DNA from: an uncultured Solirubrobacterales bacterium
GTDB taxonomy: Bacteria > Actinomycetota > Thermoleophilia > Solirubrobacterales > Solirubrobacteraceae
Assembly: GCA_963725535.1 (NCBI GenBank)
Contig: CAVRYX010000001.1
Span: forward strand, 75,540 to 139,539
Direction: 5' to 3'
DNA length: 64,000 nucleotides
Below are positions 27,406 through 33,999 of this stretch, piece after piece (positions within the stretch are counted from its first letter, which is position 1; each line of letters starts with the position of its first letter). The position numbers were made by a program, and so were the translations under genes. The notes below the pieces were generated by a model. The model saw only the letters and a program-made list of their open reading frames with translations, ran no database searches and was not told the origin of the DNA.

Positions 27406-28512
27406 CTACGGGCAGGTGACCATCAGCGAGAACGGGTTGTCGGTTGGGGTGGTGCCGTCGTAGGTCACCACCGTGACGCTGTGCGCGCCGGTCACGGCAG
27501 CCTGGGCCGTGCTCTCGGTTTCGGCTGCGTTGACGGTCACCACGACGGCGCAACCGGTGAGCGTTACGCCTGTATCCGTCAACGTGTACGTGCCGGAGGA
27601 CGGGTGTTCGACGGTGAGGGCGTCACCCACCACCGCGGTTGCGACCCCTTCGGAGGTGACGGTCGCCACCTCTGTCAGGCCGGCGCCCGTCGGTCCGGCT
27701 GGACCGGTCGTGCCAGTCGCTCCAGTAGCACCAGTGGCGCCTGTCGCCCCTGTGGTTCCCTGCGAGCCCGTTGCACCGGTGGGGCCCGTCGCTCCCGTGG
27801 TTCCCTGCGAGCCCGTCGGTCCGGTTTCACCGGTCATACCAGTTTCACCCGTGGCTCCGTGCCGGCCGACGGCTCCGGTTGCGCCAGTAGGTCCGGTTTC
27901 GCCGGTCATACCCGTCGCGCCGGTCACACCAGCAGCGCCAGTGGCGCCAGTCACACCAGCAGCGCCGGTGGCACCGGTGGGGCCCGTCGGGCCGGTTTCA
28001 CCAGTGGCACCCGTGGCTCCTGTTGCTCCCTCGATTCCCTGTGGGCCTTCGAGGCCGGTTGCGCCGGTTGGGCCAGTCGCACCGCCGCCGGGGCCTGTTG
28101 CGCCGGTCGGGCCGGTCGCACCGGTGGCACCACCACCCGGGCCCGTCGCGCCCTTTGGCCCGGTCGCGCCAGTTGGTCCGACTTCGCCAGTCACACCGGT
28201 TTCGCCGGTTTCGCCGGCGGCTCCGGTCGCGCCCGTGACCCCCCGAGGTCCTTCGGCACCCCTTTCGCCGTTCAGTCCGTTCACTCCGCTGGCGCCGGTT
28301 GCGCCAATCACACCGGGAGGGCCGGTGGGCCCAGCGGGGCCCCGCAAAATGACCTTGCTTCTCGGCTTCATCTTGGAGTGGCCTGCGGACCGAGCCCTGG
28401 CGGCGTCGGCCGGAGCGGTGGTCGTGCCCAGTGCGAGCACGCTGAGCAGGCCACCTCCGAGTAGGCTTCGACACACCTTGAGACTCGTCTGACGTACGGG
28501 GTGCATATGCAC
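27406..28512 (-). CDS. secreted collagen-like triple-helix repeat protein with globular C-terminal domain
   Basis: Signal peptide, then about 210 aa of uninterrupted Gly-X-Y ([19 protein letters not shown]...[16 protein letters not shown]) with Thr dominating the Y position, then a ~90-aa beta-rich tail with 2 Cys. Confidence 0.85.
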
Positions 28513-28545
28513 GCTAGTTCAGCAGATTAGTATACCTGGTACACA

Positions 28546-29727
28546 ATGGTCACCGGCCGGCCGTCAATCTGCCTGTGCATGATCGTCAAGGACGAGGTCG
28601 CGTCCCTGAAGCGCTGCTTGGACTCCTGCTGTGAGCTGATCGACCACTGGGTGATCTGTGACACGGGGTCCACCGACGGCACGCAGGATCTGATTCGCCA
28701 CGAGCTCGCGGGAATCCCAGGTGAGCTCCACGAGCGCCGCTGGATCGACTTCGGCCACAACCGCAGCGAGCTGATGCGACTGGCCCGCGGCAGGGGAGAG
28801 TACCTGCTGCTCCTCGACGCCGACTGGACGATCGAGGTCAGTCCCGACGCGCTGGGTTGTCTGGTGGCCGACTCCTACCTGATCCGCCACGCCGGGGAGG
28901 TCGAGTTTCACAACAAGCGGCTGGTCAACGGTCGTCTGGAGTGGCGCTACACCGGAGCCACACACGAGTACATCTCGAGCGACGCCGAGCGCACCTGCGA
29001 GCGCCTGGAGGGGGTGGTGATCCACGTGCACTCGGTTGGCGGGTCGCGCACCGGTCGCTGGCAGCGCGACGCCGAGTTGCTGGAGGCGGAGCTCGAGCGG
29101 GACCCCGCCGACGCTCGCGCAGTGTTCTACCTCGCGCAGACCTACCGTGACCTCGGCGCCGAGAGTGACGACCGAGCCCTGCTTGGACTTGCGCTCGAGC
29201 ACTACCGGCGCCGCGCGGGGTTGGGCGGCTGGGCGGAGGAGACGTACTACGCCCACTACCAGGTCGGTGTCCTCAGCGCCCGACTGGGCGACTGGTCCGG
29301 GGCCGTCGATGCCTTTCTTACAGCGTGGGAGCAGCGCCATGCCCGGCTGGAGGCGGTGCACGATCTCGCGGTCGGCCTGCGCGAGCGCGGCCTGTACCAC
29401 GCAGCACACCGCTTCACGAGCCTGGCTGCGGACCTGCGCCCGCTGACGGTGCCTGAGGACATCCTGTTCGTGGCACCCTGGATCTACGAGTGGGGGATGC
29501 TGTTCGAGTACTCGATCACCGCTTACTGGTGTGGGGAGTTCAGCGCCTCGATCCTCGCCTGCAAGCGACTGCTAGAGATCGATTCGCTGCCTGAGCCCCA
29601 CCGCCGCCAGACTCGCGCCAACCTGCAGCACGCCTTCAGAGGGGGGGTTCGCCGGGCGGCCGAGCAACCGCCTCTGCCACCGCGCAGGCTGCCGCACACC
29701 GGAACCTCAACGCACGGGCGCTCTTAG
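28546..29727 (+). CDS. family-2 glycosyltransferase with C-terminal TPR-like helical region
   Basis: ICLCMIVKDEVASLKRCLDS...IDHWVICDTGSTDGT...LLLLDADW (the DxD region of TPR-linked GT2 enzymes). AVFYLAQTYRDLG is TPR-like. Confidence 0.8.
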   Translation: MVTGRPSICLCMIVKDEVASLKRCLDSCCELIDHWVICDTGSTDGTQDLIRHELAGIPGELHERRWIDFGHNRSELMRLARGRGEYLLLLDADWTIEVSPDALGCLVADSYLIRHAGEVEFHNKRLVNGRLEWRYTGATHEYISSDAERTCERLEGVVIHVHSVGGSRTGRWQRDAELLEAELERDPADARAVFYLAQTYRDLGAESDDRALLGLALEHYRRRAGLGGWAEETYYAHYQVGVLSARLGDWSGAVDAFLTAWEQRHARLEAVHDLAVGLRERGLYHAAHRFTSLAADLRPLTVPEDILFVAPWIYEWGMLFEYSITAYWCGEFSASILACKRLLEIDSLPEPHRRQTRANLQHAFRGGVRRAAEQPPLPPRRLPHTGTSTHGRS

Positions 29728-29775
29728 GTACGACTTTCAAGACCAGCTAACCACCGAGTCAAGACCGGCTTAACC

Positions 29776-29806
29776 ACCGAGGGCCCGCACTGGGCGGGCC
29801 CTCGGT
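29776..29806. terminator. 13-bp-stem hairpin between convergent genes (candidate bidirectional terminator)
   Basis: ACCGAGGGCCCGC-actgg-GCGGGCCCTCGGT followed by TCTCACTT. Preceded by a ~20-bp direct repeat (AAGACCAGCTAACCACCGAG / AAGACCGGCTTAACCACCGAG). Confidence 0.5.
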
Positions 29807-29825
29807 TCTCACTTGGCGCGATGTC

Positions 29826-32276: not shown

Positions 32277-32313
32277 TTGTGTGCGGCCTCCTCCTTGAAT
32301 GAGAGTGGACTGA

Positions 32314-32352
32314 GTGCCTTCCGATTGGCAGGACGGTGCCTTCCAATCGACA
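32314..32352. promoter_or_regulatory. 17-bp direct repeat pair upstream of the 816-aa protein gene
   Basis: GTGCCTTCCGATTGGCA and GTGCCTTCCAATCGACA, 5 bp apart, 38-76 bp upstream of ATG 32276. Candidate binding sites for the adjacent LuxR-type regulators. Confidence 0.3.
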
Positions 32353-32546
32353 CGACAGGCGCATGACAGACCGCTACCGGCCTATCAGCGGGCCGGATAC
32401 TATGGGCACCGCAAGTTCTCCACAATCATCAGGTGGGATAGTCTTTTACCCCCTGTCAAATGGGTAGGTAGTCCCCACCCCAAGCGACACACCGGGTGAG
32501 AATCATTACTGCTGGAGCTAAAAACTCCGTGGCAGGGAGGTGGTGA

Positions 32547-33242
32547 TCAGCGTGTGTGGAGCTGACCTGACGGAGTTGCCGGCTCGTCGCTGCCGGACAT
32601 ATTCGAGCTTTCAGCGCTGTCTTCCTGCTGGCGACTGACGGCCTGCATCGCCTGTACGCGGTTGCGCACGCCCAGCTTGGAGTAGATCGTGCGCAGATGG
32701 AACTTGACCGTGTTGGAGGAGATTGTCAGCTGCGCGGCGATCTCCTTGTTGCTCATCCCGTGGGTCAGCAGCTCGAGCACCTCGCGCTCGCGCGCGCTCA
32801 ACACGGCAAGCGGGGCGTCCGGCTGCAGCGATGCCGCCTGCCAGCCGACGGGCATCACCGCGCGGCCCTCGAGCACGTGGCGCAGGGCGAAGGTCATCTC
32901 CTCGACCGTGTCGGAGGTGAGCACGACGCCCTCCGCCTGCTCGTCGATCGCGCAGCGCACCACAGCCGGCGTGGCGACCTCGCAGAGCAGCAGGATCTTC
33001 AGCTCTGGATGCGCGCGCTTGATCTCGGCCACCGCCTCCGGACCGGCCTCGGGATCGTCGGTGTAGACGATCGCTGCCTGCAGGTTCAGCTCGTCTGCGC
33101 GCGATCCCGTCTCCAGCTCGCGGCAGCTCGAGTAGGCGCCCACCACGCGGTTGCCGCTTTTCGTGAGCATCCATGCGAGCGCCTCGGTGGCGAGCGCTCC
33201 AGCTCCACCGACGATCGCAATCCTGGGCTCAAGTGCCGCCAC
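32547..33242 (-). CDS. LuxR/NarL-family regulator with atypical receiver domain
   Basis: C-terminal HTH LSAREREVLELLTHGMSNKEIAAQLTISSNTVKFHLRTIYSKLGV. In the receiver-like N-terminus the acidic DD pair is replaced (IAIVGGAG). Confidence 0.8.
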   Translation of the reverse strand: MAALEPRIAIVGGAGALATEALAWMLTKSGNRVVGAYSSCRELETGSRADELNLQAAIVYTDDPEAGPEAVAEIKRAHPELKILLLCEVATPAVVRCAIDEQAEGVVLTSDTVEEMTFALRHVLEGRAVMPVGWQAASLQPDAPLAVLSAREREVLELLTHGMSNKEIAAQLTISSNTVKFHLRTIYSKLGVRNRVQAMQAVSRQQEDSAESSNMSGSDEPATPSGQLHTR

Positions 33243-33999
33243 TGGTCATCTGCGCATACTGGTTGGCGGCCTCGACGCGATTGCGCACCCCCATCCGTGC
33301 GTACATGGCGCGGACGTGGAACTTGATCGTGTTTGGGCTGAGGTTGAGATCCCTGGCGATCTCATCGTTGCGCCGCCCTTGTGCGATCAGCGCGAGTATC
33401 TGCCGATGACGCGGGCTCAACCCTCCCTGCGTTCCTGGGTGCGCGGCGACCACCCGCTGCCAGCCGGCTGGCATGACGGTACGTCCGGTGGCCGTGTATC
33501 TGATCGCGGCCCGTATGTCCTCAGTCGAGTAGCTCTTGAGGAGCACCCCGCTCACCCGGTGGTCGATCGCGCAGCGCACCACCTCTTCGCAGAGCCCCCG
33601 GCAGAGCATCACGATTCTGGTCTTCACGTGCGATGAGCGCAGCGCGCCGACTGCACTCTGGCAATCGCCGGGCTCGCCTCCATCACAGTCGAGCAGGAGC
33701 ACCGCCGGTAGGCTCTTCACGTCGGCGGACTGGAAGTGCGCGGCGGACTCGAACGTCCCCAGCACATTGAGCCCGTCCTGCGCCGTCAGCAGGCTCGCGG
33801 TGGCTTCCCGCAGTAGACGCTGCCCGCCGATCAGCGCGAGCGTGATAGTCGGGTTGGGGCGGAGGAGGGGGGAGGAGGGCGACCAGCCGCCCCACTCGGC
33901 CGGTCCGCTCGCTACGCTGGCGGCGCCTGGCGGCGCGTAGACAAGGGCGCCTAAACCCTTGTCTGTGTCACGGCGCGACTCGTTGGTCTCCGACGGCAT
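33229..33999 (-). CDS. LuxR/NarL-family regulator with atypical receiver domain (tandem paralog)
   Basis: HTH LSPRHRQILALIAQGRRNDEIARDLNLSPNTIKFHVRAMYARMGV. The receiver reads LALIGGQR instead of DD. 14-nt overlap with the downstream paralog. Confidence 0.75.
   Translation of the reverse strand: MPSETNESRRDTDKGLGALVYAPPGAASVASGPAEWGGWSPSSPLLRPNPTITLALIGGQRLLREATASLLTAQDGLNVLGTFESAAHFQSADVKSLPAVLLLDCDGGEPGDCQSAVGALRSSHVKTRIVMLCRGLCEEVVRCAIDHRVSGVLLKSYSTEDIRAAIRYTATGRTVMPAGWQRVVAAHPGTQGGLSPRHRQILALIAQGRRNDEIARDLNLSPNTIKFHVRAMYARMGVRNRVEAANQYAQMTSGGT

Follow-up and report, generated by a model that had tools for sequence, protein, structure and literature searches.

In the genome of an uncultured soil bacterium of the Solirubrobacterales (assembly GCA_963725535.1, contig CAVRYX010000001.1), five genes lie side by side at positions 27406-33999 of the stretch analysed here, a 64,000-nucleotide piece of DNA referred to as the window, whose coordinates are used throughout. 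They encode a collagen-like secreted protein, a glycosyltransferase (GT) of family GT2 with tetratricopeptide repeats (TPR), a secreted protein of 816 amino acids (aa) and two regulators of the LuxR type. All five open reading frames (ORFs) were found where a preliminary description of this DNA had placed them. The principal features are the following:

27406..28512, minus strand: collagen-like secreted protein, 368 aa (Pfam Collagen, E 1e-29)
28513..28545, no strand: divergent intergenic region of 33 bp, between the collagen GTG and the GT ATG
28546..29727, plus strand: GT2+TPR glycosyltransferase, cytoplasmic, 393 aa (Pfam GT2, E 2e-8)
29826..32276, minus strand: 816-aa secreted protein with a signal peptide, without a Pfam domain above threshold
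32277..32546, minus strand: regulatory region of the 816-aa gene, 270 bp, strongly conserved across loci
32547..33242, minus strand: LuxR1, NarL/FixJ-type regulator with a degenerate receiver (NarL alignment)
33229..33999, minus strand: LuxR2, NarL-type paralogue overlapping LuxR1 by 14 nt

The region is probably, although far from certainly, to be read as two linked modules instead of a single five-gene system. Module A, consisting of the LuxR2, LuxR1 and 816-aa genes (33999-29826, minus strand), is a lineage-wide core unit. Module B, consisting of the GT2+TPR glycosyltransferase and the collagen-like gene (27406-29727), is an accessory cassette.

The block had initially been perceived as a lower-GC islet. 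The dip is real, with a GC content of 0.648 in the block, 0.731 upstream and 0.678 downstream, and it stems from the 816-aa gene, whose globular part has a GC content of 0.629 and whose helix and tail have 0.531; the collagen-like gene reaches 0.704. The idea of an acquired low-GC island was ruled out: the trio of module A is core to the lineage, and in 59/59 loci the 816-aa orthologue has a lower GC content than the DNA around it, so that the dip belongs to the gene itself and does not point to acquisition.

Distribution of the two modules

Eighty species-representative loci around homologues of the 816-aa gene, all of them from metagenome-assembled genomes (MAGs), were searched with the window proteins. 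Both LuxR genes lie directly upstream of the 816-aa gene in about 78/80 loci, within flank contexts that vary (GST/IclR, recO/glutaredoxin-fpg, DsbA and others). The GT and the collagen tail were found in 13/80 loci, always as a pair, and the remaining 67 carry the trio without it. When present, the pair is located immediately 3' of the 816-aa gene, with the GT convergent with that gene and the collagen-like gene divergent from the GT. It is absent from relatives that have the same flanks and 816-aa proteins 69-90% identical (L002/L023, L004/L009). By flank context, the pair occurs in 11/13 IclR loci, in 2/20 recO/glutaredoxin loci (L011, L089) and in three others (L010, L085, L094). Taken together, the near-universal trio and the sporadic pair indicate a core trio with a facultative cassette, non-randomly linked to each other.

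One locus of this set, L057 (OY969580.1, 13717-17695), is a natural knockout of the presumed GT substrate. Its collagen gene is cut after about 280 aa by insertion sequence (IS) elements, with an IS30-like transposase gene at 14913-16352 and an IS3-like one at 16201-16950, while the GT and the trio are intact. Furthermore, the identities of the GT and the 816-aa protein are incongruent: locus L007 shows 95% for the 816-aa protein and 71% for the GT, and locus L030 shows 63% and 83%, respectively.

The preliminary description treated the five genes as one system, expected to be syntenic in relatives, an expectation that failed in the 67 loci with the trio only. In its strongest form, this view holds that the LuxR pair jointly governs the three structural genes and that the 816-aa stalk carries the glycosylated collagen fibre or is needed for it, giving a composite nap. 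It gains from the constant position of the pair immediately 3' of the 816-aa gene in at least three flank contexts, from the existence of a six-gene version (L094), from the five-gene state being the majority in the IclR context, and from the shared design of the two secreted proteins, each a rod-like spacer with a polybasic end. However, the trio stands alone in most species, the GT/collagen pair also occurs far from any 816-aa gene, the motif of the 816-aa promoter described below is missing from the GT/collagen intergenic region, the identities of the two modules are incongruent, and in L057 the trio persists next to a disrupted collagen gene. We consider such an integrated system unlikely, and we retain the reading of a core trio and a linked accessory cassette.

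The glycosyltransferase and its collagen-like neighbour

The collagen-like protein is built from a signal peptide, a long repeat region and a small C-terminal domain. The elements of this gene and of its upstream region are:

27409..27678, minus strand: C-terminal domain, about 90 aa, ending in FSLMVTCP and holding two conserved Cys
27679..28341, minus strand: collagenous region, residues 58-278, 73 Gly-X-Y triplets
28528-28535, no strand: -10-like element TAGTATAC, partly palindromic, kept in 11/12 loci inspected

A Sec-type signal peptide (residues 1-36, approximately), conserved in the orthologues, precedes a basic mature N-terminus with seven K/R and no D/E in 21 aa. The repeat region was first described as some 210 aa of uninterrupted Gly-X-Y with Thr-rich Y positions. 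It is indeed long and Thr-rich, Thr filling the Y position of 48 of the 73 triplets, but not strictly uninterrupted, as two register breaks of a single Gly each (GPGGG) occur at residues 127 and 143. The number of triplets varies from 58 to 107 among orthologues, and the region would measure approximately 60-63 nm if triple-helical. The C-terminal domain, which has no match in Pfam or NCBIfam, is a putative trimerisation or tip domain.

An intact orthologous ORF of 334-529 aa was detected with tblastn in 12/13 pair-bearing loci. Public protein sets yielded only 10 matches to the collagen tail domain, mostly fragments, and in the window three long ORFs overlap on both strands at 27406-28512; gene callers evidently mis-call this high-GC repeat gene. 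Since the collagen gene is largely missed in this way, its association with the GT is invisible in current annotations.

The GT gene is transcribed divergently from the collagen-like gene, as previously noted, with a start-to-start distance of 33 bp (GTG to ATG) that becomes 39 bp if the collagen-like protein starts at the conserved ATG at 28506, its probable true start. The 33-bp gap implies that the leaders of both genes are very short or absent. Judged from its sequence, TAGTATAC could serve as a promoter element in this region.

The GT lacks a signal peptide and membrane segments. Its GT-A domain (residues 1-165, approximately) contains a DTGSTD motif and a DXD motif (D91-A92-D93), both invariant in the family alignment, and is followed by TPR-like repeats (residues 168-300, approximately) and a conserved Trp/Tyr-rich C-terminal motif, WIYEWGMLFEYS. 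With the single sequence, the TPR remained below the Pfam threshold; a profile of 21 GT family sequences matched consensus TPR proteins over residues 168-300 with E values down to 1.7e-17, homologues do carry Pfam TPR matches, and one of them is named 'tetratricopeptide repeat-containing glycosyltransferase' by NCBI. Among solved structures, the single sequence matched the GT domain of GmaR (E 1e-8) as well as ThuS/SunS, and the family profile matched GmaR with an E value of 4e-14 (residues 5-185) and SunS with 3e-13 (residues 4-222). These comparisons support the assignment of the enzyme, at the sequence level, to the GT2+TPR class, in which the members with solved structures are glycosyltransferases of proteins or peptides.

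The pairing of this GT with collagen-like genes, already suspected from the window, extends beyond module A. In addition to the 13/13 cases beside an 816-aa gene, the GT adjoins a collagen-like gene in L087, L088, L089, L090 and L094. In L087 and L088, GT homologues with 55-60% identity lie in unrelated contexts with a collagen-like gene within 1-2 kb, and the gene in L088 bears the same tail domain as that of the window. Moreover, a scan of 80 metagenome loci centred on a distant GT clade, with a run defined as at least 15 Gly-X-Y triplets within 2.5 kb, revealed a collagen-like run near the GT in 26/80 loci, and in 10/22 of those whose flanks reach 2.5 kb or more on each side. The commonest layout, collagen divergent and upstream of the GT, matches the window. 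The background, five short collagen runs in about 1.36 Mb of 816 loci without the pair, corresponds to a more than 20-fold enrichment of collagen-like genes beside the GT.

In the metagenome set, a DUF4333 lipoprotein gene was observed directly upstream of the GT, often between the GT and the collagen gene, in 19/80 loci (examples of such genes are L088:6380-6961, L087:6661-6993 and L094:5409-5849), and the database protein P0208 is a DUF4333-GT fusion. The window cassette has no DUF4333 gene. Locus L094 represents the six-gene form, with collagen, DUF4333, GT, 816, LuxR1 and LuxR2 genes.

The collagen-like gene could also be no more than a frequent neighbour of the GT, whose true acceptor might be a polymer of the cell wall, a sugar carried on a lipid or a different protein, for example the 816-aa one. 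The GT2 family is huge and mainly acts on polysaccharides, some homologues are annotated as 'involved in cell wall biosynthesis', fusions to FkbM methyltransferases occur among them, and 12/22 full-flank distant homologues have no collagen-like neighbour. On the other hand, the enzyme has no membrane segment and carries a domain for protein interaction, proteins or peptides are the acceptors of all its nearest solved relatives, collagen-like genes are strongly enriched beside it with the divergent layout prevailing, and the Thr-rich Y positions match the substrate of the Clostridioides difficile enzyme SgtA. For the 816-aa protein as acceptor, the occurrence of its gene without the GT in most genomes is a further objection. 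We regard another acceptor as distinctly unlikely and continue with the collagen repeat as the presumed substrate.

A viral connection was also considered. A total of 429 full-length GT relatives with 32-43% identity were detected on IMG/VR viral contigs, giant-virus MAGs included, and a collagen-like ORF lies within a few kb in 17/80 kept loci (L171-L250; for instance L232:6001-8202 and L234:6001-9139); some of these ORFs have Thr at more than 90% of the Y positions. Along with the presence/absence pattern of the cassette and the similarity of the collagen repeats to many PHROG tail-fibre families and of the GT to a phage GT family, this would be compatible with the pair being a prophage or mobile-element remnant, with a tail fibre and a phage moron and no role at the cell surface. 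However, the collagen-like protein has a conserved Sec signal and no tail-fibre domains, and its PHROG matches are limited to the repeats. Phage structural, integrase and att-like features are absent at the pair, whose flanks are the IclR and 816-aa genes; the viral homologues are just 32-43% identical, and the insertion point is the same across diverged species. With the Sec signal kept and phage features absent from the flanks, a prophage or tail-fibre origin of the pair is highly improbable.

The 816-aa protein and its paired regulators

The 816-aa protein had been described as lacking a nameable domain and ending in a Glu/Lys helix and a polybasic tail, a picture that the present analysis bears out. 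After the signal peptide it comprises three parts:

30381-32144, minus strand: chain of immunoglobulin (Ig)-like beta-sandwiches, residues 45-632 approximately (AlphaFold2 model)
29961-30380, minus strand: Ala/Glu/Lys helix, residues 633-772 (140 residues)
29829-29960, minus strand: polybasic tail, residues 773-816 (16 K/R and one acidic residue in 44)

No matches to the protein were found in Pfam, NCBIfam, PHROG or among PDB sequences, save for a sub-threshold Big_1. The AlphaFold2 model, computed from 46 sequences, consists of a beta-sandwich chain, one long helix and a disordered tail, with a mean predicted local distance difference test score (pLDDT) of 64.5 and values of 70-90 in the beta regions. 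Its Foldseek matches were AgI/II C123, the CfaE/B pilins, complement MG domains, Cna, intimin, SbsB and Sap, with low TM-scores (0.1-0.16 over full length), and enzymes were absent among them. Membership of a known enzyme family unrelated to the envelope, an outcome that would have spoken against the proposed surface system, was unsupported, as these searches gave only Ig-like chains and the protein models as such a chain on a helical stalk.

The helix consists of 31% Glu, 26% Ala and 21% Lys. A canonical heptad coiled coil is not supported for this region, given its 5.5/11-residue periodicity and the mere handful of large hydrophobic residues in 140; a single charged helix is the better fit. 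No LPXTG, SLH, CWB2, LysM or other known anchoring module was found, and the C-terminus has neither an LPXTG motif nor a hydrophobic segment.

The N-terminal 634 residues have hundreds of full-length relatives with 52-93% identity, all the named ones being uncultured Solirubrobacterales or Solirubrobacteraceae MAGs, and an exhaustive search gathered the family into 371 clusters at the 50% level. Residues 321-360 (window 31197-31316), YSANPYYGAYIPATDRPVPQASGIDGPSPGGDFPAFLNKH, are among the most conserved of the family, with 83-85% column identity, and are modelled as disordered (pLDDT 33-37); this stretch could be a functional loop or an unmodelled fold. Allelic variation was also observed. In L038, LuxR1, IclR and GST are 95%, 88% and 86% identical to those of the window and the 816-aa protein only 59%. 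In L038 and L023, compared with L008, L009 and L026, the identity of the 816-aa protein is out of step with that of the flanks, in the reverse direction in the latter three. The alleles differ also by insertions at residues 167, 265 and 323. Such discordance suggests a surface antigen whose alleles are exchanged or are under diversifying selection.

The region upstream of the 816-aa gene contains the following elements:

32462-32480 (about -205 to -186), minus strand: inverted repeat GGGTRG-N7-CYACCC, in 73/80 loci
32433-32445, minus strand: half-site AAGACTATCCCAC, with AAGACTAYCCCAC abutting the -35
32420-32425, minus strand: putative -35 TTGTGG, 17 nt from the -10, the pair spanning -149 to -121
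32397-32402, minus strand: putative -10 TAGTAT, forming a promoter-like pair with TTGTGG
32314-32356, minus strand: direct repeats in the leader, marked out by conservation
32287-32296, minus strand: strong Shine-Dalgarno sequence AAGGAGGAGG, conserved

The ribosome-binding region TCAAGGAGGAGGCCGCACACAAATG is nearly invariant in more than 60/73 loci, and the inverted repeat has only six occurrences elsewhere in 1.6 Mb. The promoter and operator roles of these elements are predicted from conservation and spacing. Synteny and position suggest that the LuxR pair binds the conserved inverted repeat. A cis element common to the 816-aa promoter and the GT/collagen intergenic region was sought across loci and not found, the inverted repeat being absent from the latter, so that the co-regulation of the five genes proposed in the preliminary description is left without support.

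LuxR1 and LuxR2 share 38% identity, carry GerE domains (Pfam E 1e-22 and 1e-18, in the two proteins) and match over their full length the structures of NarL and VraR and models of NarL, MctR and MadR. The residues of the phosphorylation pocket were read from the orthologues of the 80 loci aligned to NarL:

NarL D13 D14: G G in LuxR2 (74-75/80); G, then A or V, in LuxR1 (G A in the window)
NarL D59: D in LuxR2 (77/80); D (42) or Y (36, the window allele) in LuxR1
NarL T87: C in LuxR2 (78/80); C in LuxR1 (79/80)
NarL K109: K in LuxR2 (80/80); K (41) or T (36, the window allele) in LuxR1

The acidic DD pair, reported as missing from the window proteins, is therefore missing from essentially all orthologues (GG, GA), and the loss of the phosphorylation pocket in LuxR1 and LuxR2 makes both of them pseudo-receivers. 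In agreement with the initial observation, no NarL-type kinase lies near the pair. The nearest kinase, a HAMP/HisKA/HATPase sensor encoded at 11679-13592, is 19 kb away and of the wrong subtype, and it adjoins a probable response regulator gene at 10901-11689. A VVRCAID motif shared by LuxR1 and LuxR2 holds another Cys, in addition to the near-invariant Cys at the T87 position; the conserved Cys residues are perhaps a hint that redox or thiol sensing has taken over from phosphorylation.

Further features of the window lie at or around the modules. Between the convergent GT and 816-aa genes, one hairpin was noted:

29777..29805, no strand: candidate bidirectional terminator hairpin, GC-rich, with a 13-bp stem (dG -30.8 kcal/mol, z -5.0)

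This hairpin was missed by the terminator scan, which requires a T-tract, and the sole terminator-like calls of the strict scan fall inside Lys/Glu-coding repeats. No tRNA or Rfam features were found in the window. Downstream, positions 39966-47595 form a mobile, variable stretch with a RES-domain toxin gene (39966-40664) and a small partner upstream of it, a Mutator-family transposase gene (42678-43532) and a large serine recombinase gene (44710-46902); relatives likewise have transposases and toxin-antitoxin genes on the downstream side of the trio. At 16745-20607, on the minus strand, an ORF for a secreted-looking alpha-galactosidase (Melibiase_2) overlaps a Tectonin-domain ORF. The syntenic locus L090 likewise has a Tectonin gene.

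A proposed surface model and its known counterparts

On the reading of a core trio with an accessory cassette, the two LuxR pseudo-receivers would be translationally coupled and act without phosphorylation, possibly as a heterodimer, binding the inverted repeat and the half-site upstream of the -35 and thereby controlling the 816-aa gene. The product of module A would be an abundant envelope protein, held on anionic wall or membrane polymers by its Lys-rich tail, with the Ala/Glu/Lys helix, about 20 nm long, projecting the Ig-like chain outward. When the cassette is present, the cytoplasmic GT would O-glycosylate Thr residues of the Gly-X-Thr triplets before Sec export, the sugar being, by analogy, an N-acetylhexosamine (HexNAc) from a UDP-sugar. 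The glycosylated chains might then trimerise via the Cys-containing C-terminal domain into a fibre of about 60 nm, tethered through its short basic N-terminus. The cassette itself would have been retained in some lineages and lost or relocated in others, its place being 3' of the 816-aa gene. The common design of a rod with a basic end and the recurrent adjacency of the genes suggest that the 816-aa and collagen products share one surface, probably with neither requiring the other.

Several observations weigh against this picture. LuxR binding, heterodimer formation and tail-mediated anchoring are all three things that we infer, as are glycosylation, surface location and fibre formation for the cassette. 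As the GT has no signal peptide and the collagen-like protein has a Sec signal, glycosylation would have to precede export; such an order is known in other systems. The similarity of the GT to GmaR and SunS is confined to the GT domain and the first helices, and about half of the full-flank distant GT homologues (12/22) have no collagen-like neighbour. For the 99-aa collagen tail, AlphaFold2 gave an all-beta model whose pLDDT of only 55, reached with an alignment of 11 sequences, was too low to support a fold search. Finally, a strict sigma-70 scan returned zero promoters. The glycosylated surface fibre or nap envisaged at the outset is plausible for the GT/collagen pair, and the part of that proposal that joined all five genes in one co-regulated system is not supported, given the trio alone in 67/80 loci.

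A broader synthesis can be formulated. GT2+TPR enzymes with the WIYxWGxLFEYS motif could be general O-glycosyltransferases of collagen repeats, present in phages and giant viruses as well as in Actinomycetota and further soil bacteria. The Sec-exported, glycosylated fibre of the Solirubrobacteraceae could dock on the 816-aa stalk, so that the two components make up a nap, anchored electrostatically, on cells that do not sporulate; a heterodimer of pseudo-receivers, working without phosphorylation, would set its expression. In its entirety, we hold this synthesis to be quite improbable.

Solirubrobacterales are abundant in soil and almost wholly uncultured, and, to our knowledge, Thr-glycosylated bacterial collagens are known essentially from Firmicutes spore surfaces (BclA, BclA3). 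If the proposed role of the cassette is correct, the same logic of enzyme and substrate works on a Sec-secreted protein of vegetative cells, and the GT family is a genomic marker of glycosylated collagen-like fibres in bacteria and viruses. The trio provides a testable candidate for the main surface protein of the lineage and, having a defined, albeit putative, operator, offers a natural system in which to study pseudo-receiver regulators that come in pairs.

Among stalked and S-layer proteins, AgI/II C123, Cna, intimin D00-D0, SbsB and Sap resemble the 816-aa protein in presenting Ig-like chains on an extended spacer. In contrast to them, the 816-aa protein has no LPXTG, SLH or CWB2 module, its spacer is an Ala/Glu/Lys helix without a heptad core, and its anchoring by the Lys-rich tail is hypothetical. 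The regulators recall BldM-WhiI of Streptomyces (PMC4125116), also orphan NarL/FixJ-type regulators with a non-canonical pocket in Actinomycetota, two of which may work together, possibly as a heterodimer; pseudo-receivers have been reviewed (PMC12632262). The likeness is one of class. Unlike BldM and WhiI, the window LuxR genes are paralogues that lie side by side, overlap and keep a fixed synteny with a single target gene, and their possible heterodimer is suggested by translational coupling. For the trio, which has no described counterpart, the most fitting view is that of a stalked surface protein specific to this lineage and served by its own pseudo-receiver regulators.

For the cassette, GmaR of Listeria and the glycocin S-glycosyltransferases SunS/ThuS are the best sequence relatives of the window GT with solved structures. 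They share a GT2 domain followed by TPR-type helices, GmaR O-GlcNAcylating flagellin and carrying its TPR domain after the GT domain (PMC9638930), and their protein or peptide substrates are modified in the cytoplasm and exported later, as in the route proposed here. They differ in that the similarity covers only about the first 185-220 residues, in that the window GT has its own Trp/Tyr-rich C-terminal motif and lacks the GmaR anti-repressor domain, and in their substrates, flagellin or a bacteriocin instead of the presumed collagen repeat. BclA of the Bacillus anthracis/cereus exosporium nap shares with the collagen-like protein a variable number of Gly-X-Thr repeats and a C-terminal globular domain; its Thr glycosylation is known, and that of the window protein is presumed. 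The exosporium-targeting N-terminal motif of BclA is absent from the window protein, which has a Sec signal and a basic segment there. Moreover, the C-terminal domain of the window protein, of about 90 aa, is shorter, with no Pfam match and no confident C1q/TNF-like model, and rhamnose/anthrose genes do not lie near the window pair.

The closest parallel, already proposed in the preliminary description and now strengthened by enzyme architecture as well as gene adjacency, is the SgtA-BclA3 pair of C. difficile. In SgtA, an enzyme of 358 aa, residues 1-260 form a GT-A domain and residues 262-358 hold four TPRs; it is encoded directly upstream of bclA3 and modifies Thr in the collagen repeats of BclA3 with beta-O-GlcNAc (PMC7157674). 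By this published description, SgtA and the window GT (358 and 393 aa) are both soluble enzymes with an N-terminal GT-A/GT2 domain and C-terminal TPRs, and both genes adjoin a collagen-like gene with Thr-rich triplets. The window genes are, however, divergent and the C. difficile pair co-directional, the window substrate carries a Sec signal and ends in a smaller domain of another kind, and the host is a high-GC actinobacterium of the class Thermoleophilia with no evidence of spores. By analogy, the cassette is the SgtA/BclA3 theme in another phylum, with a signal-bearing substrate, another tail and divergent genes.

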